The notes under the pieces were generated by a model. The model made no database searches and was not told the DNA's origin. It saw nothing but the letters and a program-made list of their open reading frames with translations. A program made the translations under genes and the position numbers. Positions 4,223 through 38,219 of a DNA stretch of 64,000 nt are shown one piece after another. The DNA comes from Nitrospirales bacterium (lineage in GTDB: Bacteria; Nitrospirota; Nitrospiria; Nitrospirales; UBA8639): NCBI GenBank assembly GCA_963555755.3, contig OY820905.2:3008001-3072000 (forward strand). The letters are read 5' to 3'. Position 1 is the stretch's first letter. Every line of letters starts with the position of its first letter.

Positions 4223-5509
<1,287 letters not shown>

Positions 5510-8044: not shown

Positions 8045-8254
8045 GATTTTACCTCCCTGGATAGTGATAAAAATACACTCGATTGAGTGAAAAGGATGAA
8101 GGCCAACCTCAGAATTCATCTAGTGATGACAGGACTGGTTTCATCCTTTCGGTCAGAAATAACGTGTGTATGGCGAATTCCTAATCACCGCTGTCAGAAG
8201 CCCAATGAGCCGGTTGTGTCTGAGCTTTCCCCGTTATGGGTTTTTTTACCAAAC

Positions 8255-8309
8255 GGGCATCTGAAAAACTCTAGCCTTTCAATGCGGATGAATTTATAGA
8301 AGGGACAGG
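8255..8309 (+). repeat. 83-bp structured repeat, partial copy 1
   Basis: ...TGAAAAACTC...AATGCGGATGAATTTATAGAAGGGACAGG. Confidence 0.8.
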
Positions 8310-8563
8310 GAGTTTTCCTGGGTTACCCTCGGGCGTCCTTTACGTTTTGGTTTCTCTGAAACATTGATGCTTTTGATTTGCACACCTGGGGGAAACCCCT
8401 GTAATGACATCATTAATGCTTGTCGGCGGACCTCATCCATTGAAACCTCTATGTGCTTTTTGGGTTGCTTCGTGAGTCCTATCCGCGGCAAGTTGATACT
8501 CTTTCTGCCCTCGCGAAAGTTCTTTTTATGTTTGTTGTCAGGCCAATGCTTCGAGAGTTTCAT
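8294..8563 (-). CDS. hypothetical basic protein
   Basis: AAGGAG RBS; ORF ends inside the repeat. Confidence 0.45.
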   Translation of the reverse strand: MKLSKHWPDNKHKKNFREGRKSINLPRIGLTKQPKKHIEVSMDEVRRQALMMSLQGFPPGVQIKSINVSEKPKRKGRPRVTQENSLSLL

Positions 8564-8631
8564 AATATTCTCCTTTTACCTGATCGTTCCTTATTATCGG
8601 GGGTCCCAATCAGGCCTGCTCCCTCACAGAT

Positions 8632-8922
8632 TCAGTTTTTGAGAGTTGGGCCTTTCCACATCAGATACGGAGGGTTTTTGAGCTCCACTGCCGATTTAGG
8701 GAATTGATGTTGCGCAGTGCCGTAAGCGAATTCTTGGGCCTCCAGACAGGTTGAACCATAAAAGTGCCCCGATACAGCTTTAAAATTCATTTGGCCTTGG
8801 CGGTCTGGGTTGGCCATATACAGTTCACAGATAAAACCATTTTCTTTGGAATAGTTGGTACTGATTAGTAGCTGGGACCCATCGGGAAGTGTGGTGATAG
8901 GATCGGTACTGAATGGGCTCAT
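8632..8922 (-). CDS. hypothetical protein
   Basis: AAAGGA RBS, 96-aa ORF. Confidence 0.6.
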   Translation of the reverse strand: MSPFSTDPITTLPDGSQLLISTNYSKENGFICELYMANPDRQGQMNFKAVSGHFYGSTCLEAQEFAYGTAQHQFPKSAVELKNPPYLMWKGPTLKN

Positions 8923-9368
8923 TGGTGTTCCTTTCTGTCACTTTCCTTGCAGATAGATCCTGGATTGAAACAAACCTTGGCCCGATTGGGTCAAGGCATT
9001 CCGGAAAAGGGGTGGGCAGGAAAAGGCAGACAAAAATGCTAAAATTAAGTCAGCCCAACTTCCTGCATTCCCTTGAAGATGTAGGAGCAATGAGCACTAA
9101 GGAGGGGTAAACACAAATGAACTGATCGTGCGAGGGAAGGACTTACAAATGTGAAGGCGCAATAAATAGGTTAGTCATCAGAACTCGCACAACAAAAAAT
9201 TTTAACATGATCTCTATCACTCGTCAAATTGCCGAGATTGGAATAAGGTCCATTATGTGGATCTCGAATGGTATTGTTACCTTAACGCAATTGGAACGCC
9301 GTAGGGCCTGTGCAGGGCGAATTGTTAATCATGCGACCCTTGGGGTGTAAAACAATCCCTGACAATAT

Positions 9369-9451
9369 CGTATGGGCAAAAAACTAATCTAGCCTTGGGG
9401 TATCTGAAAAACTCAAGTATTTCAATGCAGATGAATTAATGGAAGGGCCTG
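9369..9451 (+). repeat. 83-bp structured repeat, copy 2 (degenerate)
   Basis: CGTATGGGCAAAAAACTAATCTAGCCTTGGGGTATCTGAAAAACTCAAG...GGAAGGG. Confidence 0.8.
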
Positions 9452-9549
9452 ACTTGTGCCGTTTGAAAATACCTTGCCTGGAGGCCGGATGAGTGTTGTG
9501 ACCAGACGACATTGGCTATCTTTTATTCCTCTGTTGCGATATATTGAGG

Positions 9550-9742
9550 AAACTTATCGCGTGGGGCTTGGCGATGAGAAATCTAATTACCAAAGCCCGC
9601 AACTGGTGTTGTTTTGCCTGAGGGATAACTCGGAAGTGTCTGACTTCTGTCGCCTGAATGCAGCGTCCGCGGACTACTCCTTCCCAATGTTTCACCCTTC
9701 TCGAGCCTAAGACAATATCATTTTTTCAAAAGGAGGAATCCC
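9550..9742 (+). ncRNA. candidate structured 5' leader of RRM gene
   Basis: ATCGC/GCGAT stem whose loop GGGCTT can pair with AAGCCC; motifs shared with the leader at 43087-43285. Confidence 0.45.
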
Positions 9743-10066
9743 ATGAGTTCAAAATTGTATGTAGGTGGACTGCCGTATTCCACGACTCAAGCAGAATTAA
9801 CCGACCTGTTTTCGGCACACGGCACCGTCCAATCAGCGAACGTCATTAGCGACAAATACACCGGCCAATCCCGTGGATTTGGATTTATCGAAATGTCGTC
9901 CGGAGAAGAAGCTCAAGCCGCAATTACAGCCTTACATTCTACGGAGTTAGGTGGCCGAACGTTGACGGTCAACGAAGCCAAACCCCAAGCCCCACGTACT
10001 GGTGGTGGGGGTGGAGGCTATGACGGTGGTGGGGATTTTGGAGGTAAACGCCGCAGCAGGTTCTAA
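9743..10066 (+). CDS. RRM RNA-binding protein with Gly-rich tail
   Basis: RNP2 KLYVGGL, RNP1 RGFGFIEM, VNEAKP; AGGAGG RBS. Confidence 0.95.
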   Translation: MSSKLYVGGLPYSTTQAELTDLFSAHGTVQSANVISDKYTGQSRGFGFIEMSSGEEAQAAITALHSTELGGRTLTVNEAKPQAPRTGGGGGGYDGGGDFGGKRRSRF

Positions 10067-10088
10067 CGATAACCCCAATACGTCTGGT

Positions 10089-10124
10089 AAAAGGGAGAGG
10101 TCAAAAAGGTCTCTCCCTTTTTTA
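10089..10124 (+). terminator. intrinsic terminator
   Basis: AAAGGGAGAG...CTCTCCCTTTTTT after the RRM gene. Confidence 0.7.
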
Positions 10125-10149
10125 TCCCGAATTCAGCAGTTGAAAAGGT

Positions 10150-10233
10150 CGTATGGTCACAAAACCCATCCAGCCTTGCGGTATCTGAAACATTCAAGTT
10201 TTTCAATGCGGACGAATGTATAGAAGGGACAGG
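10150..10233 (+). repeat. 83-bp structured repeat, copy 3
   Basis: CGTATGGTCAC...GAATGTATAGAAGGGACAGG. Confidence 0.88.
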
Positions 10234-10387
10234 GATGGTACTACGTAAATTTACCTATTTCGAAATTTGAAAAAATAGCAAGTGTGCTACAAGGCCCCCG
10301 GCCGTTGACCAAAACAATTGTGGGGATCGACTTTTCCGCAGCACATACTTCTGTGTGAAGGCCACTTGTAACAAGTGACCAACGAAC

Positions 10388-10518
10388 AAAGCCCCACCGT
10401 CGCAACGATGAGGCTCGCTGTTTGTGTAACGCTCGTATCGACTACTCGTTGACGCCTGCACCTCCCTCATCCGGTAGCCAATGAGTCCGACTAAGCTAGA
10501 GCCTAACAGCAGGATCGT
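10388..10518 (-). pseudogene. orphan PEP-CTERM-like tail with terminator
   Basis: Minus strand TILLLGSSLVGLIGYRMREVQA; the position that is a TAA stop in the 7671-7800 copy reads TCA; homologous to 7671-7800. Confidence 0.6.
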
Positions 10519-10790
10519 GATACGTTTGGTTTTCTAGAGCTGCCATGAACCTGGGCACAAGGGTCGGTCAGACCCGTCTCGCAGGGTGAATTCCTGCATG
10601 TCAGACGGCGGAGCCCGCAGATTGACCCCTCACCGCGTTCTTTGGTACGTTGCGGTCTAGTCAAAAAGGCCTTTTGAATTTCCTATTCCCAAACCAACAG
10701 ACTTGAATAAAGCAGCAATCCATGTCACCTTCACACCATGAAGCAAACCCATCAGAGGAATAACCGCACAGCAAATGCGGAGGATGCCAA

Positions 10791-12569
10791 ATGCCGTTGA
10801 AGAAAAACAGCGGTAAACGGCGCTTCCAACTCATTTTGATAAAACCGTCTCATTACGACGATGATGGATATGTGATCCGTTGGTGGCGTGTTTTAATTCC
10901 CTCTAACACGCTTGCCGCTGTGTACGCCATTGCGGCAGATTGTGCTGAACGCCAGATCTTAGGCGCAGATGTCACCATCGACATCGACGTGATTGACGAG
11001 ACCAACACCCACGTCGACACGGCCGCACTTCTCGCCAATCTTCAACGTCACGACAATTTTGGTATGGTCGCTCTTGTCGGCGTCCAGTCAAACCAGTACC
11101 CGCGTGCTCTCGATATTGCCCGGCCGTTCCGTGGGGCCGGCGTTTTGGTTGCCATAGGTGGTTTTCATGTATCGGGCTGCCTGTCGATGCTGGATGGGCG
11201 GGCGATTGATCTCGACGCTTGCCGCAAGATGGGCATTTCCATGTTTGCGGGCGAGGCCGAGGGCTCGTTTGACGAGGTGTTGCGCGACGCAGCTAAAGAT
11301 CAGCTCGCACCGATCTATGACTTCATGAAGGATCTGCCCGGCATGGAAGGCACACCCGTGCCGTTCTTGCCCAAACGTTTTGTCGAGCGCACGCTTGGCC
11401 TCTCCACCAGTTTCGACGCCGGCCGCGGCTGCCCTTATCTGTGCTCGTTTTGCACCATTATCAATGTACAGGGTCGCAAGTCGCGCTTTCGTAACGCCGA
11501 CGATATCGAGCATCTTGTCCGCCTCAACTGGGCCCAGGGCATCCACAAATTTTTCATCACCGACGATAACTTCGCCCGCAACAAGGAGTGGGAAGCGATC
11601 TTTGATCGCCTGATCGAGTTACGCGAGGAGCACGGAATTCCACTCGGCCTGATGATTCAGGTCGACACTTTGTGCCACAGAATTAAGAATTTCGTCGAGA
11701 AGGCGAAGCGTGCCGGTGTCACGCGCGTCTTTATCGGATTGGAGAATATCAATCCGGATAATCTTATGGCGGCGAAGAAGCGCCAGAACAAGATCATCGA
11801 GTACCGCAAAATGCTGCTCGCCTGGAAGGCGCAAGGCATCATCACGCTTGCCGGGTATATCCTGGGCTTTCCGGCTGATACGCCAGAGACGATCAGGCGC
11901 GATATCGCGATTATTCAGGAGGAACTGCCGCTTGATATTATGGAGTTTTTTTGCCTGACACCCCTGCCCGGTTCGGAGGATCATCAGATCTTATGGAACA
12001 AGGGCATTGCGATGGACCCTGATCTCAACATCTACGACTGTGAAAATGTCTGTACCGCTCATCCAAAGATGACAAAGCGCGAGTGGGAGGACATCTATCG
12101 CGAGGCCTGGTCGCTCTATTACACGCCCAAGCACATGAAAATACTGCTGCGCCGCGCAGCCGCCACCGGCGTACCAATTGGCAGCCTGGTCAAGCTTTTA
12201 GTGACATTCGCGACTTCGGTCCGCCTTGAGGGCGTTCATCCCTTGCAGAGCGGCCTCTTGCGTCTCAAACATCCGTCCGAACGACGCCCTGGCTTGCCGC
12301 GCGAGAACCCTTTAATTTTCTGGCCGCACTTCGTCTGGGAAACGCTCAGAAAACAAGTCATCTTTGCCGGTGCAATTATCGCGCTGCTGCCGTCGGCTTT
12401 TGCTCTTTCGCGCAACCCTGCTGCACGAAATTACATGGATCAGGCCCTCACTCCGGTGAGCGAGGAGGAATATGAAACGCTGGCCCTGTTCACCCAGAAT
12501 GACGCAGCCCAGGCAGCTGTCCCGCGTTCTAAAAAACACGCCGCATTGAAGGTTTATGCTACAGAATAA
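10791..12569 (+). CDS. B12-binding-type radical SAM protein
   Basis: RGCPYLCSFC (CxxxCxxC), FFITDDNF, FIGLE, YILGFP, TPLPGS; GC3-rich codon style. Confidence 0.9.
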   Translation: MPLKKNSGKRRFQLILIKPSHYDDDGYVIRWWRVLIPSNTLAAVYAIAADCAERQILGADVTIDIDVIDETNTHVDTAALLANLQRHDNFGMVALVGVQSNQYPRALDIARPFRGAGVLVAIGGFHVSGCLSMLDGRAIDLDACRKMGISMFAGEAEGSFDEVLRDAAKDQLAPIYDFMKDLPGMEGTPVPFLPKRFVERTLGLSTSFDAGRGCPYLCSFCTIINVQGRKSRFRNADDIEHLVRLNWAQGIHKFFITDDNFARNKEWEAIFDRLIELREEHGIPLGLMIQVDTLCHRIKNFVEKAKRAGVTRVFIGLENINPDNLMAAKKRQNKIIEYRKMLLAWKAQGIITLAGYILGFPADTPETIRRDIAIIQEELPLDIMEFFCLTPLPGSEDHQILWNKGIAMDPDLNIYDCENVCTAHPKMTKREWEDIYREAWSLYYTPKHMKILLRRAAATGVPIGSLVKLLVTFATSVRLEGVHPLQSGLLRLKHPSERRPGLPRENPLIFWPHFVWETLRKQVIFAGAIIALLPSAFALSRNPAARNYMDQALTPVSEEEYETLALFTQNDAAQAAVPRSKKHAALKVYATE

Positions 12570-12719
12570 TCAGGGGGGCAATCCGGGCTTTTGATGCGGT
12601 GCGGACCTTGGTGGATTTTCGCGCCTTTTAGATACCTTGGAAGGGGGGCAAGTCTTGACTTAATATATTAACTTCCTTTTTCGGTTTTTCCCCATTCAAG
12701 ACTGTGGTCGCATCACTAG

Positions 12720-12860
12720 TGGTCTGTCCCAGAAATTGTGGACACATCCGAAGCGCACGAGAGTGCGCAATGCGAGCTGTCCTACAAAGCAGTGCCGCTC
12801 TAGCTAACTATTCAAAGGAAAAGCCCCACCGTCGCAACGATGAGGCTCTCTGTTCGTGTG
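12720..12860. repeat. IS3-like terminal remnant fused to terminator hairpin, copy D
   Basis: TGGTCTGTCCCAGAAATTGTGGACAC...AGCCCCACCGTCGCAACGATGAGGCT. Confidence 0.65.
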
Positions 12861-13003
12861 GGGAATAGAGTTAGACGGTTGAGTGTGCCAACCTCTGTTC
12901 CATTACGGGCATCCCAACTGTGGAAGAGGTTTTAAGTCACGACGATTCACAGTCGGCTCACTTGGGAGACCTCGCACCTCAAACCCTGGTGTATCTTGGG
13001 AAA

Positions 13004-13697
13004 TCAATTCACGTCTCCCTTGCGGGCAATATGGGCGCGGAATACTTGCACCCGATTGTTCCCTTTATCAACGACGTAGAGAGTTCCTTGATCATTTGCC
13101 GCACCACTTGTCGGTTTGCGAAATTCTCCTGCTTTGTCCCCTCGGTGTCCGAAAGCGCCTAAAAATTCTCTTTGTTTGCTAAATATTTGAATCCTGTGAT
13201 TCTCATAGTCTGCAACGTAGATATGACCAAAGTGGTCTTGGGTGAGCCCGCTGGGATAGCGAAACTCACCTGCGCCTGTGCCAAAGGCGCCAAAGGTATT
13301 GATAAATTTTCCTGAGCTGTCAAAAATCTGGATACGATGATTTTTAAAATCACAGACAAAAATTTGATCGTTCTGGTCGAGAAAAATACAAATGGGGTTA
13401 TGCAATTGACCGGGGCTGCTGCCAAAACCACCAAACTGCCTCAGAAATCTGCCTTGCTGATCAAAAACCTGCACCCGGTGATTGCCCCAATCCGCCACAT
13501 AGATATTATGGTGTGAATCTAACGCTATTCCACGCGGATTTTTAAATCTGCCTGGCTTCGTACCCCTTCCCCCAAAGTGTTTGAGGGAATTTCCCTGCCT
13601 ATCAAGAATCTGTATGCGATCATTGCCTGTATCGGCAACGTATAAGTTCCCCTCCTTGTCAATGATGACTGCATCGACCCAAGCGAATTCTCCTTCC
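13004..13697 (-). pseudogene. NHL-repeat beta-propeller protein, 5' truncated
   Basis: Repeated YVADxxNxRIQIF / GxF..PxGI units; the ORF start lies inside repeat copy 4. Confidence 0.75.
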
Positions 13698-13781
13698 CGT
13701 ATGGTCAAAAAACTCATCTAGCCTTGCGGTATCTAAAAAACGCAAGTTTTTCAATACGGATGAATGTATAGAAGGGACAGG
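13698..13781 (+). repeat. 83-bp structured repeat, copy 4
   Basis: CGTATGGTCAAAAACTCATCTAGCC...GAATGTATAGAAGGGACAGG. Confidence 0.88.
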
Positions 13782-13950
13782 TAGACCAAAAGGCCTGCTT
13801 TCGGGTGTGTGGTGCTGTAAGGGAGGCCATGGAGTCTTAGGTTGCCGGGCCTCGCAAGGAAGTAGAAAAGGAATCACTCAACTAAAAGGCTTGCTCTGTC
13901 TATATCAGGCGAAGTACAATTTTGTTTCGCATTCCAAGGGAGGAGATGAT

Positions 13951-14718
13951 ATGCCACAGCTGCTTCATGCTCCATCGGAACAAGAGGCATCTTTAGACCG
14001 TGATCTCGAGCGATTGCGAGAGCAGCTTGAAACCATCAAGTCTTTCCTGGTGAGACAACCCTTAGAGGGAACCTTGATGGACTTCGACTGGGAGACGGAA
14101 GATATAATCCACCGGATGTTTGGAAGTTCTTCCCCTCTGGTGGTGATTTATGACTATGCCCAAATTGGGGAGGCAACAGGGATGGTCAATTTGCCGGAGG
14201 AGGCGCCGGAAGGTGTCACTCACGCCGCGGAGCGAGAAACCCTAAGACAACGTCAACGAGTACTAGAAATTTGTATGGGAGATCTTGAAACTCGCCGGGC
14301 AGCCTTGGCTAGGGGGGAACGCATCAAAACCGCGACTGGACCACGAGTAGCCGATTACATGTCAACAACGGTCCACTTCGTTCATGTGGACGCGACACTG
14401 AAGGAAGCGGCACTGTTCTTTCAAAAACAGAAGATCGGCTCGCTGCTGGTCAAAGGAGGGGAGCACTTTATTGGAAGCATTACCGAGACTGAATTGAGCC
14501 GAGAGGTTGTGGCAGGGGAAGTGGATCCTTTCACGACCAGGGTGATCACTTGCATGCGCGAGCCCATTATCACCATTGAAAGTAGTGATCCCATCGTCGA
14601 GGCCGTCCGACTCATGAAAGAGAAGGCCACCCGTCATTTGGCAGTGGAGGAACGTGAAACGATTGTGGGTGTCATCTCGGCCTCTGATATTTTGCGTTAT
14701 TATTCTGGGGTTACGTAA
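13951..14718 (+). CDS. CBS-pair protein with N-terminal helical domain
   Basis: GGAGG RBS; C-terminal CBS pair; paralog of 54101-54865. Confidence 0.85.
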   Translation: MPQLLHAPSEQEASLDRDLERLREQLETIKSFLVRQPLEGTLMDFDWETEDIIHRMFGSSSPLVVIYDYAQIGEATGMVNLPEEAPEGVTHAAERETLRQRQRVLEICMGDLETRRAALARGERIKTATGPRVADYMSTTVHFVHVDATLKEAALFFQKQKIGSLLVKGGEHFIGSITETELSREVVAGEVDPFTTRVITCMREPIITIESSDPIVEAVRLMKEKATRHLAVEERETIVGVISASDILRYYSGVT

Positions 14719-14941
14719 ACCTTCTTTTTTGTGTCCTGCCCCTAAAATCGCGCCAGGTTTTGTGGGAGCATTCCGTCCGTACGCTCTCCCGTCATGTAGA
14801 ATTTTTCTCATCGTGTACAGGGCTGTCCCAACTCCCATTGGCCTGACAATACACCCAAAAGATTTCAAAAAGTCATTCCTTGATGTGAGGGCTTTTTGAT
14901 CGCTCCCATTCTGGTGTAGACTCAACTCTCTTTTTCTCATT

Positions 14942-15064
14942 GGGGGGTGTTGAAAAAGTCCGCCAGCGACGTTCTCGGCCCTTTGTCGTGCTCACGTACT
15001 CCAGTATGCTCCGCGCGCCAAAGGTCCTGCGGCCTTGCTGGACGAATCTTTTTGAACACCCCCC
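14942..15064. repeat. palindromic MITE/REP-like element (GTTGAAAAA family)
   Basis: TIR GGGGGGTGTTGAAAAAG / CTTTTTGAACACCCCCC; copies at 45663, 46180 and 59703. Confidence 0.8.
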
Positions 15065-15166
15065 TTGCTCTTGAGATTGCATTGGCTGCCTCGGATGTTC
15101 ATAACCACTGAAAATTTTCAATTTTTCAACAGGCCCTCATAAGGATTAACACGGTGGCCTTCATTT

Positions 15167-15724
15167 ATGCCTTTTTTACCTGATGATCTCCAAGCCGAGC
15201 AGGCCAAGTGGCGAAAGGTTCCTCGACAGCGCCCGGCCGACATGGTCAACCCTGGTCCCGGACAGGAGTCTGTATGGGATTACCCGCGGCCCCCACGAGT
15301 TGAGTCTGTTGCGAAACGGCTCCGCGTGGAGTTCGGAGGCATGGTGTTGGCAGATACGTCTAAAGGGTTGCGGGTGATTGAGACGTCTAGCCCCCCGGTG
15401 TATTACTTTCCACTTGAAGATGTTGTGTTGACGTACTTGGAACAGACTAGACAATCCACCTTTTGTGAATGGAAAGGTGTGGCTTACTATTGGTCCATTC
15501 GGGTTCAGGGTCGAGTGGCCACACATGGAGCATGGAGTTATCCCGATCCAACTTCTGGGTATGAGATAATTGGGAATTATGTCGCCTTCTATCCGAGCCT
15601 GATGGACGCATGCTATGTGGGTGTTGAATTAGCAAGCCCCCAAGCCGGTGATTTTTACGGTGGGTGGATTACGCCAGAGATTACTGGCCCCTTCAAAGGT
15701 GAGCCCGGGACAGAGGGCTGGTAA
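15167..15724 (+). CDS. DUF427-domain protein
   Basis: ESVWDYPRPP, ETSSPPVYYFP, CEWKGVAYYW, FYGGWIT. Confidence 0.9.
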   Translation: MPFLPDDLQAEQAKWRKVPRQRPADMVNPGPGQESVWDYPRPPRVESVAKRLRVEFGGMVLADTSKGLRVIETSSPPVYYFPLEDVVLTYLEQTRQSTFCEWKGVAYYWSIRVQGRVATHGAWSYPDPTSGYEIIGNYVAFYPSLMDACYVGVELASPQAGDFYGGWITPEITGPFKGEPGTEGW

Positions 15725-15880
15725 GTGTGTCATCGCTGATTGCTTTCCACTGACTACGATCATTCTACCCTCCACGAAACTTCGTTCTTCCCCGATATCT
15801 CGCGGCTTCTTTGGCATCTCGACGGACAAACAAAAAATTAAATTTTTCATACTATCAATAACTTATGCCATCCACGAACT

Positions 15881-15896
15881 TGGCATGGGACATGCT
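15881..15896 (+). promoter_or_regulatory. sigma-54 (-24/-12) promoter
   Basis: TGGCATGGGACATGCT, GG-N10-GC spacing. Confidence 0.5.
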
Positions 15897-15922
15897 ATCT
15901 ATACATGTGAGAAAGATCATAA

Positions 15923-16462
15923 TTGGAAAACGACAGCAGCAACCAAAAGGAGGTGTGTACGATGTTCAGCGTGGAAGAACAAACCGGAACCAGAAATCGC
16001 CCCATTCAAAAGCAAGCGAATACTCAAGTGGAGCATAGTCCTTCGGACTCCTCAGAATTCGAGACCTCCCAACACTGGATGGCCACACTTCAAGGGATTT
16101 ACGGCGAAGCGGTGATTCGGTACGAACAAGGCGCTCGTGGTGCCGACGACGTGATTCCTGAAAATGGTCTGGCATTTTTGGCTTCTATTGAAACGACCGC
16201 TCAGGAGATGTACGACTTTGTCGAGGATTGGTCCGAAGTAGGTGAACCACCATTTGGTATCGTCGCGGCGATCACAGCAGTTCGGTGGAAATACTTTTTG
16301 ACCATGCAACATGGCCAGCCATCGGCACAAACTATTTCACCATCAACGCTTCCGCCGGGTTCTGCAGAGCTAGGCGGGTACTGGTGCCTACCGCGTATCA
16401 TTGCCAAGGCTCGCGCCAAACTTCGTGGTGAATTGTCCCCTGAGTTGATGGGCAGCAGTTAG
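15923..16462 (+). pseudogene. DUF5069-family protein, 3' truncated
   Basis: LGGYWCLPRIIAKARAKLRGELSPELM followed by an abrupt end; start uncertain. Confidence 0.65.
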
Positions 16463-16662
16463 AAGACCTTTTTGCCACGCATGATACGGTTGAGTCGGCG
16501 CGGGTGATCACAGACAAATTCAGGATCATACAGAATATATGGTTCTATCCTACCGCCATCCAATTCTGGCCACATGGAGTTTCTTGGCCATGGCTTAGGA
16601 TGGTGAGACCGATCTCCTCCATTGTACCTCGGAACTTCATATGCCTAGAACCATATATTCTG

Positions 16663-18691
16663 GTGCGACCAGGCAAGGCTGGTCTGATGGGAAAGGAGGC
16701 TGCGATGACTCTTTGAAAATCAGTTCATGGTCCAGTGGGTGCAAAACCCACCCAACCAAAGCGGAGCCCGGCAGGGTGGTAGCAAGCCTTGCGCCAGCGC
16801 GGGTAACCGTTATGGCGATGCGTAGGCATGCGAGCGTATGGGCCGCAGGAAATGCAGCCTCGAAAAGTGGAATATCCTGGATGTCTAGGGGCTCGGAATC
16901 TCTGAAGACCACGGCGTCGTCGCCGGTATGGGGCAAGGCGGCGGGGCATCCGGCGGGGTGAACGACTGGGGCACGTACGAAGAGGATGATCCAGGAACCT
17001 GGGAGGCCCTCATTTCTCCCTGGGAGATACCCGGTGCCACGGGGACCCGGTGACCACTCTCCGACGAACACGCGGACGCGGGTGCCTGCGTGACTCGGTG
17101 TAGAACAAGCACTCGCCTCAGGGTAGGCCGACGGCAAGGGGAACCGGAGCTGCGGCTGAGGGGGATGAGGGAGTCGGAGGGCGGCATAGGAGCGACAACG
17201 TCGGGGAACGGGGTGGTGCCTGGACCCGACCGAGCAAAGGCTGCCCGTGTTGATAGGAACGTCAGGAGGGAACCATGACCAAGGCATTGATGTGGGATTC
17301 CATGTCACCGGAACGTTTGACGGTAGCGGAACGAGCGAAACGGGAACCCGAAGGACGATGTCACGCCATGGCCCATCTCATCGATGTGCCAGCTCTGACA
17401 CGCGCCTACCGACGACTCCGCAGGAATGCCGCGGTAGGTGTGGATGGTATCACCAAGGAGCAGTATGGGCAGGAGCTGGAGCGGAATCTCCAGGATCTGC
17501 ATCACCGGCTGAAGACGAAGCGGTATCGTCATCAACCGATTCTCCGGGGATATGTGCCAAAGGGGCAGGGTCGGCACAGGCCGATTGGGATATCGGCGAC
17601 AGAGGACAAAGTGGTCCAAGGGGCGCTGCGGGACGTATGGGAGGCCATATACGAGACGGAGGTTACCGATAGCTCGTATGGGTTTCGACCGAAACGCGGT
17701 GCGCATGACGCGCTTCGGACTTTGAACCGAGCGGGGCATGGTGGGGAAATGAACTGGATCGTGGAGGCGGACATCGTCTCGTACTTTGACAGCGTGGATC
17801 GCACCAAGCTGAAGGAGATGATTCAGAAACGGGTCGCCGATGGGGCGCTCATGCGGCTCATTGGCAAATGCTTGAATGTGGGCGTGCTGGACGGCGAGGG
17901 GTATTCCGAGCCGGACGTGGGCACGGCCCAAGGATCGGTCCTCTCCCCGCTCCTCGGGAACATCTACCTCCATTACGTGCTCGATCTCTGGGTAGAATCC
18001 GAAGTGAAGCCACACCTCCGGGGGAAGTGCATCTTCGTCCGGTATTGTGATGACTTCATCTTTGGTTTCGAATGCCAGGACGATGCGGAGTGGGTGATGC
18101 TGCTGCTGGGAAAGCGGATGGGAACATATGGACTGACCCTGCATCCGGACAAGACTCGCCTGTTGTACTTTGGGCGACCGTTCAAGGGGCAGCAGGCAGG
18201 CAAGGGGCCGGCCAGTTTCGATTTCCTCGGGTTCACGCTGTAGTGGAAGCGGTCCCGATATGGACGCTGGATCTTGGCATTCAAGACCCGAGGTGCACGC
18301 CTCACGCGGGCCATTCGGTCTGTGTACGACCGGTGCCGACGCCATCGGCACCGGTCGGTGAAGGAGCAGCACATGGCGCTCGTGAGGCACGTGCGCGGCC
18401 ACATGAACTATTTTGGCGTGAACGGGAATATCCGTAGCCTGCATCTTCTTCTGGTGCAGGTTCAACGTGCCTGGTTCAAGTGGCTTCGGCGTCGCAGCCA
18501 ACGGACGCGCCTCACGTGGGAGAGGTATCAGGACCTGTTACGGGACTTTCCTCTTCCCCGTCCACGGATCGTCGTCCAGATCTGGGGGCGGTAACCCGCG
18601 AGCCATATCAGCGGAGGAGCCGGATGGTCGAAATGTCCTTGTCCGGTTCTGGCGAGGGCCTCGGCTGGGTGACTGGCCGGGGCTACTCTAC
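16663..18691 (+). mobile_element. group II intron (class E/F-like)
   Basis: 5' GTGCG; DV GAGCCGGATGGTCGAAATGTCCTTGTCCGGTTC; ends ...GCTACTCTAC; internal RT. Confidence 0.9.
17302..18594 (+). pseudogene. group II intron RT/maturase with premature TAG
   Basis: AVGVDG, RPIGI, SYGFRP, AQGSVLSPLLGNIYL, YCDD, FDFLGF; TAG at 18241-18243, after which the frame continues through the maturase domain. Confidence 0.9.
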
Positions 18692-18989
18692 TATGACCCG
18701 TTTCTAGGTTCAAGCACTCACGTGCGTGCCCCCAAGAACCCTCCAGGTGAAAAACCTGTTTTCCGGAGTTGGGTTAAGCGTCTGTCGAAAAAACCCCTCT
18801 CACTTTTGAATCTTTTTATCTTGTCCCTGGCATATTGATCATGGAACCGGCAAAAGTGCCAATTATGGGACCTTGACCTTACCTTGCACCACCCGTACGC
18901 TCTCCTGTCATGTAGAATTTTTCTCGTCGTGTACAGGGCTGTTTCAGCCCCCACTGGCCGTTTGAGTTTTTTAACCATATGAGAATATT

Positions 18990-19904
18990 GTGAACATCAC
19001 GGTTATCGGAGGATCAGGCTTCATCGGTCGGTCTCTCTGCCAATCTTTGGTGCAAGAAGGCCATCAGGTGACTGTCCTCTCGCGAAACCCAGAAAAAGCC
19101 CGCACCCGTCTTGGAGCTTCCATTTCCGTTTTCAAATGGAATCCCCTCCCTTTGGGAACACTGGAAAAAGTATTCGCAGATACGGATGCCATCGTTAATC
19201 TGGCTGGAGAGCCTATTGCCGATGCGCGATGGACGAAGAACCGAAAAGAAGTCCTGCGTGACAGCCGCGTTGGAACGACCCGCCTGGTCGTGAATGCTCT
19301 TTCAAATATTTCCAAGCGACCACGCGTGTTGATGAATGCGTCTGGAATTGGATTCTACGGCCCACAAGAATTGACCTCGGTGACGGAGCAAACCGGACCG
19401 GGGATCGGATTTCTGGCAGAGCTTTGCGTGGATTGGGAGCAGACAGCCGGGCGGGGGGAAGAGTATGGAGTCCGAGTGGTTCAGCTTAGAATGGGGATGG
19501 TTCTCGCACGGGATGGAGGAGCCTTGCCACGGATGCTACTGCCCTTTCGTCTCTTTATCGGTGGTCCTATCACCCCAGGCCACCAGAAGGTTTCATGGAT
19601 TCATTTGCAAGATCTTATAGCTCTCATAAAGGTCACTCTTTTAGATGAAACCATTCATGGAGCCATCAATGCCGTGTCCCCTTATCCGGTCACCATGCGT
19701 GAATTTTGCCAGACCTTAGGCCATATTTTGGGGCGACCCTCATGGCTCCCCGTCCCAGCCTTTGCTTTAAGGTTTGGACTGGGAGAACTGGCTACCCTGT
19801 TGACCACGGGCCAACATGTGGAACCTCTGGTTGCACAACGGTTAGGTTTCCAATTCGCCTACCCGACTTTAACACCGGCTTTGCAATCCATATTATTAAA
19901 GTAG
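18990..19904 (+). CDS. TIGR01777-family NAD-dependent epimerase/oxidoreductase
   Basis: GGSGFIG, VNLAGEPI, GFLAELCVDWE, SWIHLQD. Confidence 0.92.
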   Translation: MNITVIGGSGFIGRSLCQSLVQEGHQVTVLSRNPEKARTRLGASISVFKWNPLPLGTLEKVFADTDAIVNLAGEPIADARWTKNRKEVLRDSRVGTTRLVVNALSNISKRPRVLMNASGIGFYGPQELTSVTEQTGPGIGFLAELCVDWEQTAGRGEEYGVRVVQLRMGMVLARDGGALPRMLLPFRLFIGGPITPGHQKVSWIHLQDLIALIKVTLLDETIHGAINAVSPYPVTMREFCQTLGHILGRPSWLPVPAFALRFGLGELATLLTTGQHVEPLVAQRLGFQFAYPTLTPALQSILLK

Positions 19905-19947
19905 ATTGAAATCCCCTCATGTTGAGACCGCTGCTTGGCGTGATTGA

Positions 19948-20030
19948 CCTGTCCCTTCTATACACTCATCCGCATGGCAAAACTTGAGTTTTGTAGATGC
20001 CGTAAGGCTGGATGAGTTTTTGACCATACG
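19948..20030 (-). repeat. 83-bp structured repeat, copy 5 (inverted)
   Basis: CCTGTCCCTTCTATACACTCATCCGCAT...TTTTTGACCATACG. Confidence 0.88.
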
Positions 20031-20205
20031 ACGATAGCCCCCTCTTGATTGAGAATGTAGAGATACATAGAACGAGCGTGCAGATCAATGCCGCAGTACA
20101 ATCGGTGATGGTTGGTGTAGAATCGCATGAAGTTGCCTCCTTTGTAAGTGTTGGGTTCTGGGATCTCACAATGGAATTCTAAAGAAGGAGGCCTCAATAC
20201 GTATC
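20031..20205 (-). mobile_element. IS110-family 5' remnant
   Basis: MRFYTNHHRLYCGIDLHARSMYLYILNQEG (start of DEDD RuvC-like domain), cut off by repeat copy 5. Confidence 0.8.
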
Positions 20206-20293: not shown

Positions 20294-20803
20294 ATGGACA
20301 AGGTAGCCGTATTCGCAGACGTGCAGAACATGTATTACACGGTGAAGCAAAGGTATAATTGCCATTTTGATTACGGTGCATTTTGGGAGCACGCGACTTC
20401 TGGCAGGAGTATCGTCAAGGCTATTGCGTACGCGACAGACAAAGGGGACCAAAAGCAGATTGATTTTCAGCAGATCCTGAGGAGGATTGGGTTTGAAATA
20501 AAACTCACCCCGTTTCTCCAAAGGCGTGATGGCTCTGCCAAGGGTGACTGGGATGTCGGGATTGCTCTGGATATGGTCGAGTATGCCAAACGTGTGGACA
20601 CGATCGTCCTGGCATCAGGGGATGGTGACTACACCGTAGTCGTTGACAAGATCATACATGAGCACAATGTTTCGGTGGAAATCTACGGCGTACCGGACCT
20701 GACAGCCACTGCATTGATCGAATCGGCGACACGATTTGTGCCAATTCAAGGGAACCTGTTGTTGTCGATTCCTACAACCTGGGGGCCTATCCCAAGGAGA
20801 TAG
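20294..20803 (+). CDS. NYN-domain (LabA/DUF88) protein
   Basis: VFADVQN, KGDWDVGIALD, LASGDGDY. Confidence 0.92.
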   Translation: MDKVAVFADVQNMYYTVKQRYNCHFDYGAFWEHATSGRSIVKAIAYATDKGDQKQIDFQQILRRIGFEIKLTPFLQRRDGSAKGDWDVGIALDMVEYAKRVDTIVLASGDGDYTVVVDKIIHEHNVSVEIYGVPDLTATALIESATRFVPIQGNLLLSIPTTWGPIPRR

Positions 20804-22007: not shown

Positions 22008-22733
22008 CTAACACTCCCGACCAAGACTGGAAGGAGCCTGTTTCCTCGCGGTAACAATCGCGGAACCATAGGCAGTTAAATATTCCATTCGGATATCGGT
22101 GAATCCATTCACCCGCAGAGCCGCGGTCAGTTCCGGAATCCAACGACTCTCCTGAATGAGATCGGGCAAACCGTAAAAGATTTCACGCCAGGCTGGAAAG
22201 AGAAGGCTTCCCAGACGCTGTAGCACGTAGAAGTGGAGACGCCACAGCCACACAAGGTACGCTTTCGGTGGATAGGTGAAATCATGCATGAGAAGGAGGC
22301 CACCCGTCTTCAGCATCTCTTTGATAGTGCAGGTAAGGCTTTTTAGATCGGCGTATTTGGCCAAGTAGGAGGAAACCACACAGTCGAAGGGCTCGTTGGA
22401 ACGGTAATCCTCCGCTCGGCTCGAGACAAACTCCACGTTGGTGCGTCCCAATCGCTGAATCTTGTTTCGCGCGAGGTTCAGGTATTCCTCTCGGAGCTCC
22501 ACTCCCACGATCCGACAGTTTGGATAGCGTTCAGCGAGGGCGAATGTAGAAATTCCAGTGCCACAGGCCAAGTCCAGGATTCGTGTGGCATCGGGTGGAA
22601 TGAGGTCAACAATTCTGCGTTTCCAGCGACGGTCAATGCCGAAGGTCGCGGCGTTGACCATCCAATCATACGTGGCTCCTGTCCCGGAAAAGAAACGGTG
22701 AACTCTTTCTAATTTTGGGTTGCCGGTTTCCAT
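22008..22733 (-). CDS. class I SAM-dependent methyltransferase (UbiE/MenG-like)
   Basis: YDWMVNAATFGIDRRWK, ILDLACGTG. Confidence 0.88.
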   Translation of the reverse strand: METGNPKLERVHRFFSGTGATYDWMVNAATFGIDRRWKRRIVDLIPPDATRILDLACGTGISTFALAERYPNCRIVGVELREEYLNLARNKIQRLGRTNVEFVSSRAEDYRSNEPFDCVVSSYLAKYADLKSLTCTIKEMLKTGGLLLMHDFTYPPKAYLVWLWRLHFYVLQRLGSLLFPAWREIFYGLPDLIQESRWIPELTAALRVNGFTDIRMEYLTAYGSAIVTARKQAPSSLGREC

Positions 22734-22783
22734 GTGTCCCTTCTATTGATTCGTCCGTATTGAACCGAGGTTTAAATACTTAA

Positions 22784-22924
22784 GGGCACCTCTAAAAACC
22801 GTCCTTTTCCGTGATGGCGGCGTCAGCCGCGTGCTCAAATCCTCATGTATTCGCCCATACACTCCGGTTTTCCGCGCGCGGCTTCCTTGCCCTCACAAAA
22901 AATGCCTGGTTTTTAGAGGTGCCC
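22784..22924. repeat. MITE with GGGCACCTCTAAAAAC TIR, TTAA flanks
   Basis: Perfect TIR; internally deleted copy at 25235-25293. Confidence 0.85.
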
Positions 22925-23069
22925 TTAAATTTTTTGTGACAACGACGAATTCGAGACCCACAGAATGCCAGGAGGGAATTTAGGTGGGGAATTTCGTTCG
23001 TGGCACCACCTGACTATTGCTTCAGTTGAACGCTCCACCCTTCCCGTACAAAAAAGGACAATGCAAACC

Positions 23070-24470: not shown

Positions 24471-24640
24471 AATTCTGTCCCTGGAATGTGAATGACCCTC
24501 AATTGTGCAATAACCCCTCAGATTCAGCAATGCGGGCGGTATGAGTGGGCGGCTTGACTAGTCGAGGCCCCGCCCCCGAACAAGGCCGATCTTCAACCTA
24601 GAAATGGCAGCTGGATCACAAAAGTCCGCGCAAGCTCTTA

Positions 24641-24903
24641 GGGTCCTTTACGAAATAACCGGTGGAATTGGCCGAGACGATTTTGGAGCGAGCCAAGGAG
24701 CGAAGAGCGCGCATACCGGGAGTATGGAAGCGATGAGCGACGCCGGCGTAGCCCAAAAGTGTCCGGCCCTTCGGGGAGGCCCATCTTTGGCCCGGGGCGG
24801 CGTTGCTCCTCGGTCACAGAGCCCCGCTAGGCTCCCTCGTCGCGCCTTGCCCCGATCACAAATTTGGGCCTCCCAATTGTCCCGGTTATTTCGTGACGGA
24901 CCC
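24641..24903. repeat. MITE with GGGTCC..ACGAAATAA TIR, TTA TSD
   Basis: TIRs and TTA on both sides. Confidence 0.8.
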
Positions 24904-25234
24904 TTAGCGCACCTGGCAAAACAAAAAAATGTCTCATCACCACTAAGGTGACCACGACTTTTTTTATTTCACCATGCACACCAATAGCTTACACGGCTTT
25001 TTTGTGCCCAACTGCCGTTTCTAGGTTCATGCGACGGGAGACCCCATCAGGATTTCCTCGTCAGGCAATCTGTTTACGACATAGCGGAAAACCATTACTA
25101 TAGCTCATGACTTCCGTAGGTATTGTCAACTTAACGAAAATTCCACCCCGAACACACAATTCGCCTCGAGATAATCCATTGATTTATCAGGACGCTGTGT
25201 GCTCTACACGTTCAATCAGCCAAATCTAGCTTAA

Positions 25235-26324: not shown

Positions 26325-27559
26325 GGAGATGATATCGTGTTGTTCCAGGATCTGTAGAATGGCGAGAACAGACCCCATACCGTTCTTGACCTTATCTTTG
26401 ATAGGAGGTCACACGACGTCAAGCGATCAACAGCGCCGGCGAGTAGTGCCGGTTCAGGTAGGGGGCGACGAGGTAGCGGTATTCACGTTCGTGAGCAAAT
26501 TTGTAGAATGTTGGGAAAAGTCAATGGTCATGCCTGCCCCTAATTCTAATCAGCGGTGTCAAAATGAGGTGAAATTTGAGGGCAACAACAGCCCAACTAA
26601 CCCCTGTTCTTTTCCCTAGCTCAAGACGTGTGATGGTGAATGATGTTGGGGGAGCCTTCCCAATAATTTCATTGACAGCAGGAAATAAGAGGCATAGCAT
26701 TTCCTTGTTGGGATGAAGAATCGTACTCTGGGAATCGCAAAGGAATTGAGCGAGGAGGCGGTTCCAGAAATAACAAGAGGGGGTCACATGATGAACGACC
26801 TCAATCCACCAAACCAGTAAGGCCCGCGGCGAGCGAAGTCGTGTGGTTCTTGTTTAGGCCTGGTAAGGAGAGTTGTCGATAGGAAGCCTCTCAGAAATAC
26901 CGAACATGCCCGTAGGCATGAACAAGGTCAGGAAGACCAAACTATAATTCTGGTGGCTCCACCGAGAGGAAGAAAAGTTTAAAAGAAAAGAAGAAAAGGA
27001 TTGTAATGATTGCAAGGAGGAACAATATGGAAAGAGTCCACTCTCCGGCAATAGATCCTGTATAGAAGAAAAGAAAACAAGGCTTCGCCGCCATCGGGTC
27101 AAAGAAAAAAATGTGAAGTACTGACGGTGTATGTGTCAGGAGAACTGCGGGCTCTCTTTCTTGTGAAAGAGGGCCCGTGGTGTTTGAAACCACGTTGCGA
27201 CTCCAAAGAAACTGACAGACCGTACCCGTATGATCAAAAAACTCATTCGAGGAAAGCAAAGGCAAAACTCGCTCATTGACTCCCCGGAAGTGGCAATTAG
27301 TAGTTCGCCACGCCAGGTAGTGGAAAAATCAATATGCGTGCCTAACCTACTTCCATGCCCTGTCGAGTCGACGGCAGGGCCTGGTCATGCGTGATTACTT
27401 CACTGACATCATTAGCGCTGGATGTATCATCCTCAGTGCAATCAATGATGCCCTGACAACTTTGTCGAAGAATGGGAAAGTCGTCCCCTGGGTGGCTGAG
27501 TAATTCTTGAACTCGTTGAAAGGTCCGATCCTCGAGCGTCGGTTTTTTTAAGCGTCGGT

Positions 27560-37130: not shown

Positions 37131-38219
37131 TCAGGCGTAGTATCGACCGAATCGATTCGCGAGGATGTCCGGGAGGGCAAAAGTTTCCTGTGTGATGAAA
37201 CCCTGGTAGCGATGAGGATCGGCGAATACGGAATCCACCACACTGCACAAAGCCGCGGCGGTTGTCACTTGAATCGCGGACCACAATCTTCCTGCGATGG
37301 TCTCTGGGTAAATCTTTTTCACGTAGTTTTCTTCCATTAATTCTCCCGCTTTCCTTCCCACGACAGATACGTAAATCAGCACCACATCCTGATAGATTTT
37401 GGGAATCGCATTCTCCAGAATATGCTTGAGATTTTCCCGTTGTGTGTTGAGTTTGAGATCATTCATGAGAAAGTGAATTTTTTCGCAATGGCCTGGGTAG
37501 CGGAGGGTTTTATAGTTCATCGTTTGGACTTTGCCTGAGTACGTATCCGCCAAGGTTCCCAGTCCTCCGGAGGTGTTAAACGCCTCGTATAATAGTCCAT
37601 CGACTTCGATGGTCTCATACCCTTCGAGCGGCATGAGCGTGGTCTTCAATCCATTTTCAATTCCATAGCACACGTTCCCGTATTCGTTAATCAGGCCGTC
37701 GGTTGACCAGGTCAGAGAGTATTTCAACACATTGCTGGGATTGATGGGCAGGGCGCCCACCCGCATCTTCACGGTTTCGAGTGTATCGAAATGGTGCATC
37801 AGTTCGTTGGCGACGATGCTGATGAATCCCGGCGCCAACCCGCATTGGGGGACAAAGGCTTTCTCGCTTCCCTGACTGATCTGTTCAATTCGTTCGGTGA
37901 CTTCAACATCTTCGGTTAAGTCGAAATAGTGAATGTTATTCTTACGGGCCACATCCGCAACCGTGGGATTGCAGTAGTAGGGAAGACTCGAAATTACGGC
38001 ATCGGGTTGATGCTCGTTCACATAGTGTTCGAGGGCTGCCCCGTTTGACGCATCGAGGACCGCATGGGTGATGGGCGCGGTTTGACTTGGAGCAGTCCTT
38101 TGCTGATTGGACTGAGTCTCGATGTCGCCAAGGTGAACCGTGTACTCTTCTGTCTCTGCCAGGAACGTTCCGATCAGCGAGCCGATTTTTCCGGCGCCTA
38201 AAATGAGGATGGTTGGCAT
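37131..38219 (-). CDS. saccharopine dehydrogenase / lysine 6-dehydrogenase family
   Basis: LGAGKIG, YFDLTED, CGLAPG, TWSTDGLINEY, YKTLRYPGH. Confidence 0.9.
   Translation of the reverse strand: MPTILILGAGKIGSLIGTFLAETEEYTVHLGDIETQSNQQRTAPSQTAPITHAVLDASNGAALEHYVNEHQPDAVISSLPYYCNPTVADVARKNNIHYFDLTEDVEVTERIEQISQGSEKAFVPQCGLAPGFISIVANELMHHFDTLETVKMRVGALPINPSNVLKYSLTWSTDGLINEYGNVCYGIENGLKTTLMPLEGYETIEVDGLLYEAFNTSGGLGTLADTYSGKVQTMNYKTLRYPGHCEKIHFLMNDLKLNTQRENLKHILENAIPKIYQDVVLIYVSVVGRKAGELMEENYVKKIYPETIAGRLWSAIQVTTAAALCSVVDSVFADPHRYQGFITQETFALPDILANRFGRYYA

Follow-up and report, generated by a model that had tools for sequence, protein, structure and literature searches.

In the window analysed here, a 64,000-nucleotide stretch of a Nitrospirales bacterium genome (contig OY820905.2), an island of genes is divided by a short repeat that a first-pass annotation had taken for the site of an integron-like capture array. 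Comparison with complete relatives identifies this repeat as an 82-bp hybrid mini-element (mini) that joins the left end of one insertion sequence (IS), termed type A, to the right end of another, type B. Transposases of the two types, acting in trans, probably rejoined the ends of the mini to new neighbours, and in doing so deleted and flipped DNA of the island. What looked like a new recombination site becomes in this way a defined transposon system. Taken with the hybrid mini and the missing target site duplications (TSDs) across the family, the ends of these elements suggest that islands of environmental bacteria are remodelled by an engine like that of IS26.

A hybrid mini-element built from two insertion sequence ends

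Four full copies of the repeat, at 9369-9450, 10150-10231, 13698-13779 and, in the opposite orientation, 19950-20030, and a truncated copy at 8256-8307 stand where the first-pass annotation had placed them, and a profile search with nhmmer recovers the four seed copies at E values of 1e-23 to 1e-25. The same genome (4.6 Mb searched) yields 31 profile matches and holds 12 copies with both ends, which share 70-94% mutual identity. Position weight matrices (PWMs) for the two end types detect 52 termini genome-wide at a score of at least 17, against 2 in a reversed-genome control; the set of 52 used for target and cluster counts consists of 47 termini scoring at least 19 and five weak termini added by hand. 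These fall into 17 clusters, and the repeat is not specific to the island. The largest cluster of the genome, with 14 of the 52 termini, lies between window positions 8255 and 27227 and includes lone ends at 8255, 9508, 18981, 22735 and 27227, in a window where no further copies had been noticed. The proposed check for clustering at tRNA loci came out positive: nine of the 17 clusters have a tRNA gene no more than 10 kb away, where 3.0 would be expected (p 0.0015; 9 of 15 when only strong matches are used), an association that may most simply reflect the tolerance of islands for such damage. The repeat is present in 10 of 41 related genomes. Across the order, the CGT-type end occurs in 45 of 301 genomes, and it is carried by 42 of 114 family members and 2 of 186 non-members. 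Absences in the family-wide search with a 19-kb query mean little, because that search scored just two candidates per genome.

The length first given as about 83 bp is slightly too great. The mini measures 82 bp in 48 of 61 distinct copies and terminates at GGGACA; the following two bases are GG in just 32 of the 61, and the bases beyond GGGACA are target-derived wherever an end-free homologue exists. Terminal inverted repeats (TIRs), said to be absent, are present in imperfect form, with 14 of 24 positions identical, and the fold-back TCATCC/GGATGA makes up their inner part. It does not represent a conserved structure: DNA folding of the minis gives a median z of -0.64, with 9 of 61 copies at or below -2 and 20 of 61 above 0, and five folds of the four window copies range from -3.1 to +1.2. 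Conserved secondary structure of the repeat was rejected on these scores across the 61 copies, and Rfam contains no family at the repeat.

Type A came to light through a half-match in genome G022. The match forms the left end of a complete element, 1149 bp long, that has TGT...ACA inverted repeats and contains a single open reading frame (ORF) of 351 codons. A pattern search for the other end of the repeat (125 matches, 34 of them in an 82-bp unit) places it, in several loci, directly 3' of the stop codon of a second transposase; the complete type B elements, of 1226-1228 bp, carry this end at both termini and run from CGT to ACG. About 45 bp of the mini correspond to the type A left end, and the remainder to the last codons and right end of type B. 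Positions 1-30 of the mini agree with six A left ends at 25-28 of 30 bases and positions 31-45 at 11-13 of 15, with lower scores over positions 1-45 for two decayed A left ends; positions 61-82 agree with twelve B 3' ends at 18-22 of 22 bases, compared with 8-14 of 22 for A right ends. Read on the transposase strand, the switch from A to B lies near positions 45-60. Intact A and B elements exist in G022 and G016 (A in G022 at L334:4125-5273, B in G016 at L331:2970-4195), and in G022 the two types lie within 12 kb of one another, which shows how the hybrid could arise; it would have come from an internal deletion between adjacent A and B elements. In the present genome a decayed type A gene follows a half-repeat, and searches with these two query proteins found no intact A gene and no B gene. 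Short, non-coding, fixed in length, multicopy and bounded by TIRs, with no ORF, ends in common with autonomous ISs and no partner transposase in the genome, the mini has the traits of miniature transposable elements with inverted repeats (MITEs) and resembles integron mobilization units; it differs from both in its two ends from different parents, whose transposases share 28% identity, and in having neither TSD nor empty site.

Judged by sequence and predicted fold, the type A transposase and its type B relative are DDE enzymes. The type A protein matches Pfam rve_3 above the cut-off, the acidic residues D179, D238/D240 and E273 are conserved in at least 90% of 71 sequences, and a structure model (pLDDT 85) comes closest to IstA and retroviral integrases; sequence searches of the PDB gave nothing informative. 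The best matches of both transposases are the NCBIfam models for IS481 (NF033577, 92 and 103 bits) and IS3 (NF033516, 84 and 77 bits), which neither A nor B passes, the scores being far below the cut-offs of 224 and 160. With these families the parents, though not the ORF-less mini, share a single ORF of about 350 aa, an rve-type DDE core with D-33/35-E spacing, a length of 1.15-1.4 kb and TIRs of about 24 bp, but they lack the orfA/orfB frameshift arrangement of the IS3 family and the TSD of IS481, which is 2-15 bp and mostly 6 in the descriptions of IS481 and IS1202 family traits given in passages of PMC10045372 and 10.1101/2022.12.17.520857. The TGT...ACA termini of IS481 recur in type A (48 elements), whereas type B has CGT...ACG and the mini one of each. 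The first-pass annotation had allowed that the repeat might be the end of a known IS, and in substance it is, being made of two DDE IS ends, of a family to which no established name can be given. Relatives of the transposase occur at no fewer than 565 places in the genome scan, in records of many phyla, and plasmid records label them merely as 'integrase core domain-containing protein'. The literature searched, with ISfinder, subscription journals and supplements outside its scope, contains no description of this IS family or of a two-parent hybrid MITE; ISfinder or TnPedia could hold named members.

Target sites and breakpoints of the island

The absence of TSDs noted for the window copies extends throughout the family. 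No TSD is present in any of the 61 distinct minis, whether of 4-30 bp or longer (up to 600 bp), and flank matches of 2 and 3 bp are at chance level. The 48 complete A elements, drawn from many phyla, show no TSD of 4 or 6 bp and one of 5 bp, for which the end-free copy has a different left side; none of 49 A elements has a long target duplication up to 1500 bp, none of the four distinct complete B elements has a TSD, and the 57 own termini contain no cross-matches of 10 bp or more (loci L069 and L076, where no ends were called, were left out of the TSD count). Near-identical young IS copies in genome G301 likewise lack TSDs, and no colinear empty site with both flanks was found in the own genome or the collected loci. 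Flanks are shared on one side only: 14 pairs of minis (5 groups) have the A flank alone in common and one pair the B flank alone, one-sided sharing is also found among the near-identical IS copies in G301, and one sediment run contains 11 contigs with differing sequence ahead of terminus 13698. The two bases outside the terminus are S-Y in 45 of 52 cases compared with a background of 24%, and end-free homologues identify them as part of the target. Two longer duplications in G301 were set aside: a 35-bp overlap of two termini was inconclusive as a long TSD, a third terminus carrying the same 35-mer with another neighbour, and the copy of a 451-bp native segment next to an IS end was not counted as a capture because its end falls inside a different repeat of 49 copies.

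The alignments support the view that the ends mark where modules of the island were cut and rejoined, one side at a time, and in this sense the copies do partition the island as proposed. Of the eight window termini with end-free homologues, six coincide with the limit of homology to within 1 bp and the other two to within 9 bp. The lost side of the target was not found in the genome for 10 of 11 termini genome-wide (termini 2063940 and 2143133, whose matches were the repeat itself, were left out of this count). The exception is the RRM gene (9743-10066, forward strand, Pfam RRM_1), which lies in a segment at 9509-10149 with B termini on both sides. Its lost side is the tRNA-Met locus, where G105 and G086 have the gene in the opposite orientation and without ends, and 22 end-free homologues of the segment reach each terminus. 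For the modules of the window, the genome retains no near-identical native copies; their paralogues are 69-88% identical.

The NHL-repeat gene illustrates the pattern. Its 3' part (13004-13697, reverse strand) is cut exactly at the B terminus 13698 and, as first reported, does not resume: the 5' part was not found in this genome, and the whole 338-aa gene is present in G008 at 95% identity. In G008 a methyltransferase gene and the NHL gene are divergent neighbours with 758 bp between the two cut sites; here the 758-bp stretch was not found, and the two genes lie more than 8 kb apart, each cut at a terminus. The methyltransferase gene (22008-22733, reverse) has its upstream region replaced at the A terminus 22735, which belongs to a type-A left-end remnant at 22735-22765 (forward) detected by both profile and PWM. 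Genome G014 has several of the same genes within 5 kb and no ends. A gene start of 33 codons adjoining 20030 (20031-20128, reverse) is cut at a B terminus and has no continuation in the genome, as the first-pass annotation had seen, and the same junction occurs in G008 and one metagenome contig; the gene is presumably IS110-like by its motif, a label for which there is no Pfam match. Given the end-free arrangements in relatives, the island is best explained as DNA already in the neighbourhood, with pieces deleted, flipped and interleaved at the ends, and not as the cassette array with a non-attC site that had been proposed.

The remaining ends and modules follow along the window. A type-B left-end remnant at 8165-8255 (reverse), detected by PWM and sharing about 85 bp at 80% with other B-left remnants, cuts with its terminus 8255 the truncated mini at 8256-8307 (reverse), which consists of a type-A end with terminus 8307 and 52 bp of interior. 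The full mini at 9369-9450 (reverse, strand being read from A-left to B-right) has a degenerate A terminus that cuts, at 9450, the interior of a type-B right-end remnant at 9451-9508 (forward, terminus 9508). Cuts of this kind, 22-58 bp inside another end, are found at 8255 and 9450 in the window, at 38114 and 3208872 in the genome and in locus L163, and at one base an A end here corresponds to a B end in G011. The full minis at 10150-10231 and 13698-13779 (both reverse, by profile and PWM) bound, with termini 10231 and 13698, a segment with a Radical SAM gene (10791-12569, forward) that matches G006 at 95%, where its neighbour is one that maps elsewhere in this genome. A CBS-domain gene (13807-14718, forward) follows the A terminus 13779; on its far side the boundary is an A end in G018 and a mini in two sediment runs. 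Pfam bears out the RRM and CBS assignments of the first-pass annotation and gives no match for the DUF5069 gene proposed at 15923-16462. A type-B left-end remnant at 18930-18981 (reverse) has its terminus at 18981, where end-free homologues in G008 and G107 stop; an epimerase/DUF1731 gene (18990-19904, forward) occupies the space between termini 18981 and 19950, the latter opening the fourth full mini, which is 81 bp long and on the forward strand. At the type-B end at 27227-27290 (forward), homology to G006 stops 1 bp ahead. The mini at 13698 also provides the cut NHL gene with an in-frame ATG, giving a predicted ORF of 237 aa at 13004-13717.

Mechanism and rival explanations

The route of rearrangement would be replicative intramolecular transposition as in IS26. 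Each event would leave a copy that keeps one former flank and gains a new one. Repeated in dispensable island DNA, such events would produce ends in a row, separated by pieces the size of genes. For IS26, passages of PMC4471558 and PMC7986276 describe about 70 copies with no TSD and flanks shared at single ends, and a replicative route that leaves no matching TSD pairs and causes this one-sided sharing as well as deletions and inversions. PMC11708052 reports a rearrangement at which an IS481 copy lacks a TSD. Copies without TSD, flanks shared at single ends and adjacent deletions and inversions are found here too, as are gene segments between elements, which also occur in IS26 arrays and pseudo-compound transposons. 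Unlike in IS26, the transposases belong to a different family, and the elements are 82-bp hybrids and lone ends. The copies in this genome, with their mutual identity of 70-94% and no intact transposase found, are probably idle now.

Several observations weigh against a replicative route of this kind. Neither cointegrates nor circles were found, nor were split target halves that match as a pair, and inspection of the inverted minis at 13698 and 20030 revealed no matching target halves. The 5-to-1 bias towards exchange on the B side is too small for significance, and cross-terminus matches show no excess at 4-12 bp. A 3-bp stagger is hinted at in G301, where 717 cross-terminus matches of 3 bp are a clear excess over the 532 expected and the outside 3-mers largely pair with their own reverse complements; it is not established, because the excess is marginal in this genome (22 versus 11.5 expected, p 0.053) and B right ends lack the signal (66 of 150 have a purine at -3, background 49%). 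Relatives in the IS3 family, moreover, are described in part of PMC2909936 as using copy-out-paste-in transposition via circles, not cointegrates.

An IS911-like copy-out-paste-in route with single-end transfer is consequently a serious rival, if an unlikely one, because IS3 relatives use circles, ends are cut inside ends and A and B are exchanged at the same base. One end would attack at or near another, and circles carrying the DNA between two ends would re-enter beside resident ends, which would amount to true module capture and array building. The single-ORF transposases related to IS3 and IS481, the frequency of cuts 22-58 bp inside another end and the A end matched by a B end in G011 are all consistent with such a route, and the symmetric 3-bp target signal in G301 would suit an IS3-type stagger. 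An HU gene with a type-B end also occurs twice in the genome at 97% identity (L004:4262-4794 and L008:2538-3068). In G006 and G008, HU adjoins a mini while the far flanks differ, which makes it a candidate cargo unit. In IS911, OrfA has a role in targeted insertion. Targeted insertion of IS911 is mentioned in PMC7986276. The route predicts, however, that simple insertions with a 3-bp TSD should be common, and these are found at chance level; among the 52 termini listed no two ends abut with a spacer of 3-4 bp, the modules of the window lack near-identical native copies, and the 35-bp and 451-bp duplications in G301 are ambiguous. A third reading of the same chemistry, doubtful at present, is that a widespread, unclassified family of single-ORF IS3/IS481-like transposases makes practically no simple insertions and joins each end to a new target alone, with the conserved 82-bp hybrid serving as a portable two-transposase adaptor that builds and reshuffles gene arrays in islands. 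This would be an integron-like outcome achieved by DDE chemistry, and the system would gain in interest should simple insertions prove to be beyond the family.

That the repeat is an ordinary MITE, inserted with short TSDs and later scrambled by homologous recombination and unrelated deletions, appears improbable. The tightly conserved length (48 of 61 at 82 bp) is what a unit multiplied as a unit would show, the copies are old and found in the company of many other mobile elements, and recombination and adjacent deletion are named as known causes of missing TSDs in part of PMC11708052. Scrambling would nevertheless have had to remove all TSDs, both from 61 minis and 48 full elements of many phyla and from the recent, near-identical copies of G301, and it leaves aside the absence of any empty site with both flanks and the target bias and exact breakpoints that single ends share with whole copies. 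The action of the neighbouring tyrosine integrase or of host XerCD on a recombination site in an integron-like array, as put forward in the first-pass annotation, is very improbable and largely refuted. The arrangement resembles attC arrays and pdif modules in that gene-sized pieces separate the repeats and a tyrosine recombinase lies nearby, the clusters are enriched near tRNA genes and the window holds the largest of them; yet the repeat is composed of IS ends and transposase codons, and its breakpoints lie at the outer termini and inside genes, not within a core. As an attC site it was rejected, with R''/R' boxes in 0 of 122 cases and no conserved hairpin, and as a dif site too, the spacer being variable and inverted arms lacking: in the 11-6-11 parse once proposed, the arms are complementary at 0 of 11 positions and the TGTATA spacer occurs in 11 of 61 copies. 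The integrase reaches 51 bits against a cut-off of 265 for IntI, 75 against 335 for XerC and 65 against 330 for XerD, and the identity with each was discarded. In G086 and G105, the stretches read of the same tRNA-Met integrase loci contain no ends.

Other features of the window and related loci

The phage-type tyrosine integrase gene (4256-5509, reverse) is context only, no link to the repeat having been found; it sits at tRNA-Met (4223-4299), which its C-terminus overlaps. No attR of the tRNA-Met island was found in the genome save a 20-nt match in another tRNA, so that the far end of the island would be lost or diverged. Transposases fused to a Druantia DruA-like domain are encoded at three places read in this genome, 1141-2888 of the window, L001:554-2386 and L005:3760-5294.

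A group II intron at 16644-18699, whose reverse transcriptase is broken by a stop near 18243, has two more copies at 99.5-99.6% identity elsewhere in the genome. A separate palindromic MITE of 143-152 bp at 22779-22930 has about 130 near-identical matches in the genome and an empty site in two sediment runs, and two more high-copy repeats, at 14930-15080 and 24590-25030, have about 135 and 60-76 matches. An NYN-domain gene at 20294-20803 has an 87% identical paralogue elsewhere in the genome. In G301, tandem arrays with a period of about 882 bp lie near 7.59-7.60, 7.79 and 7.98 Mb (L383:2603-2719 and its matches).

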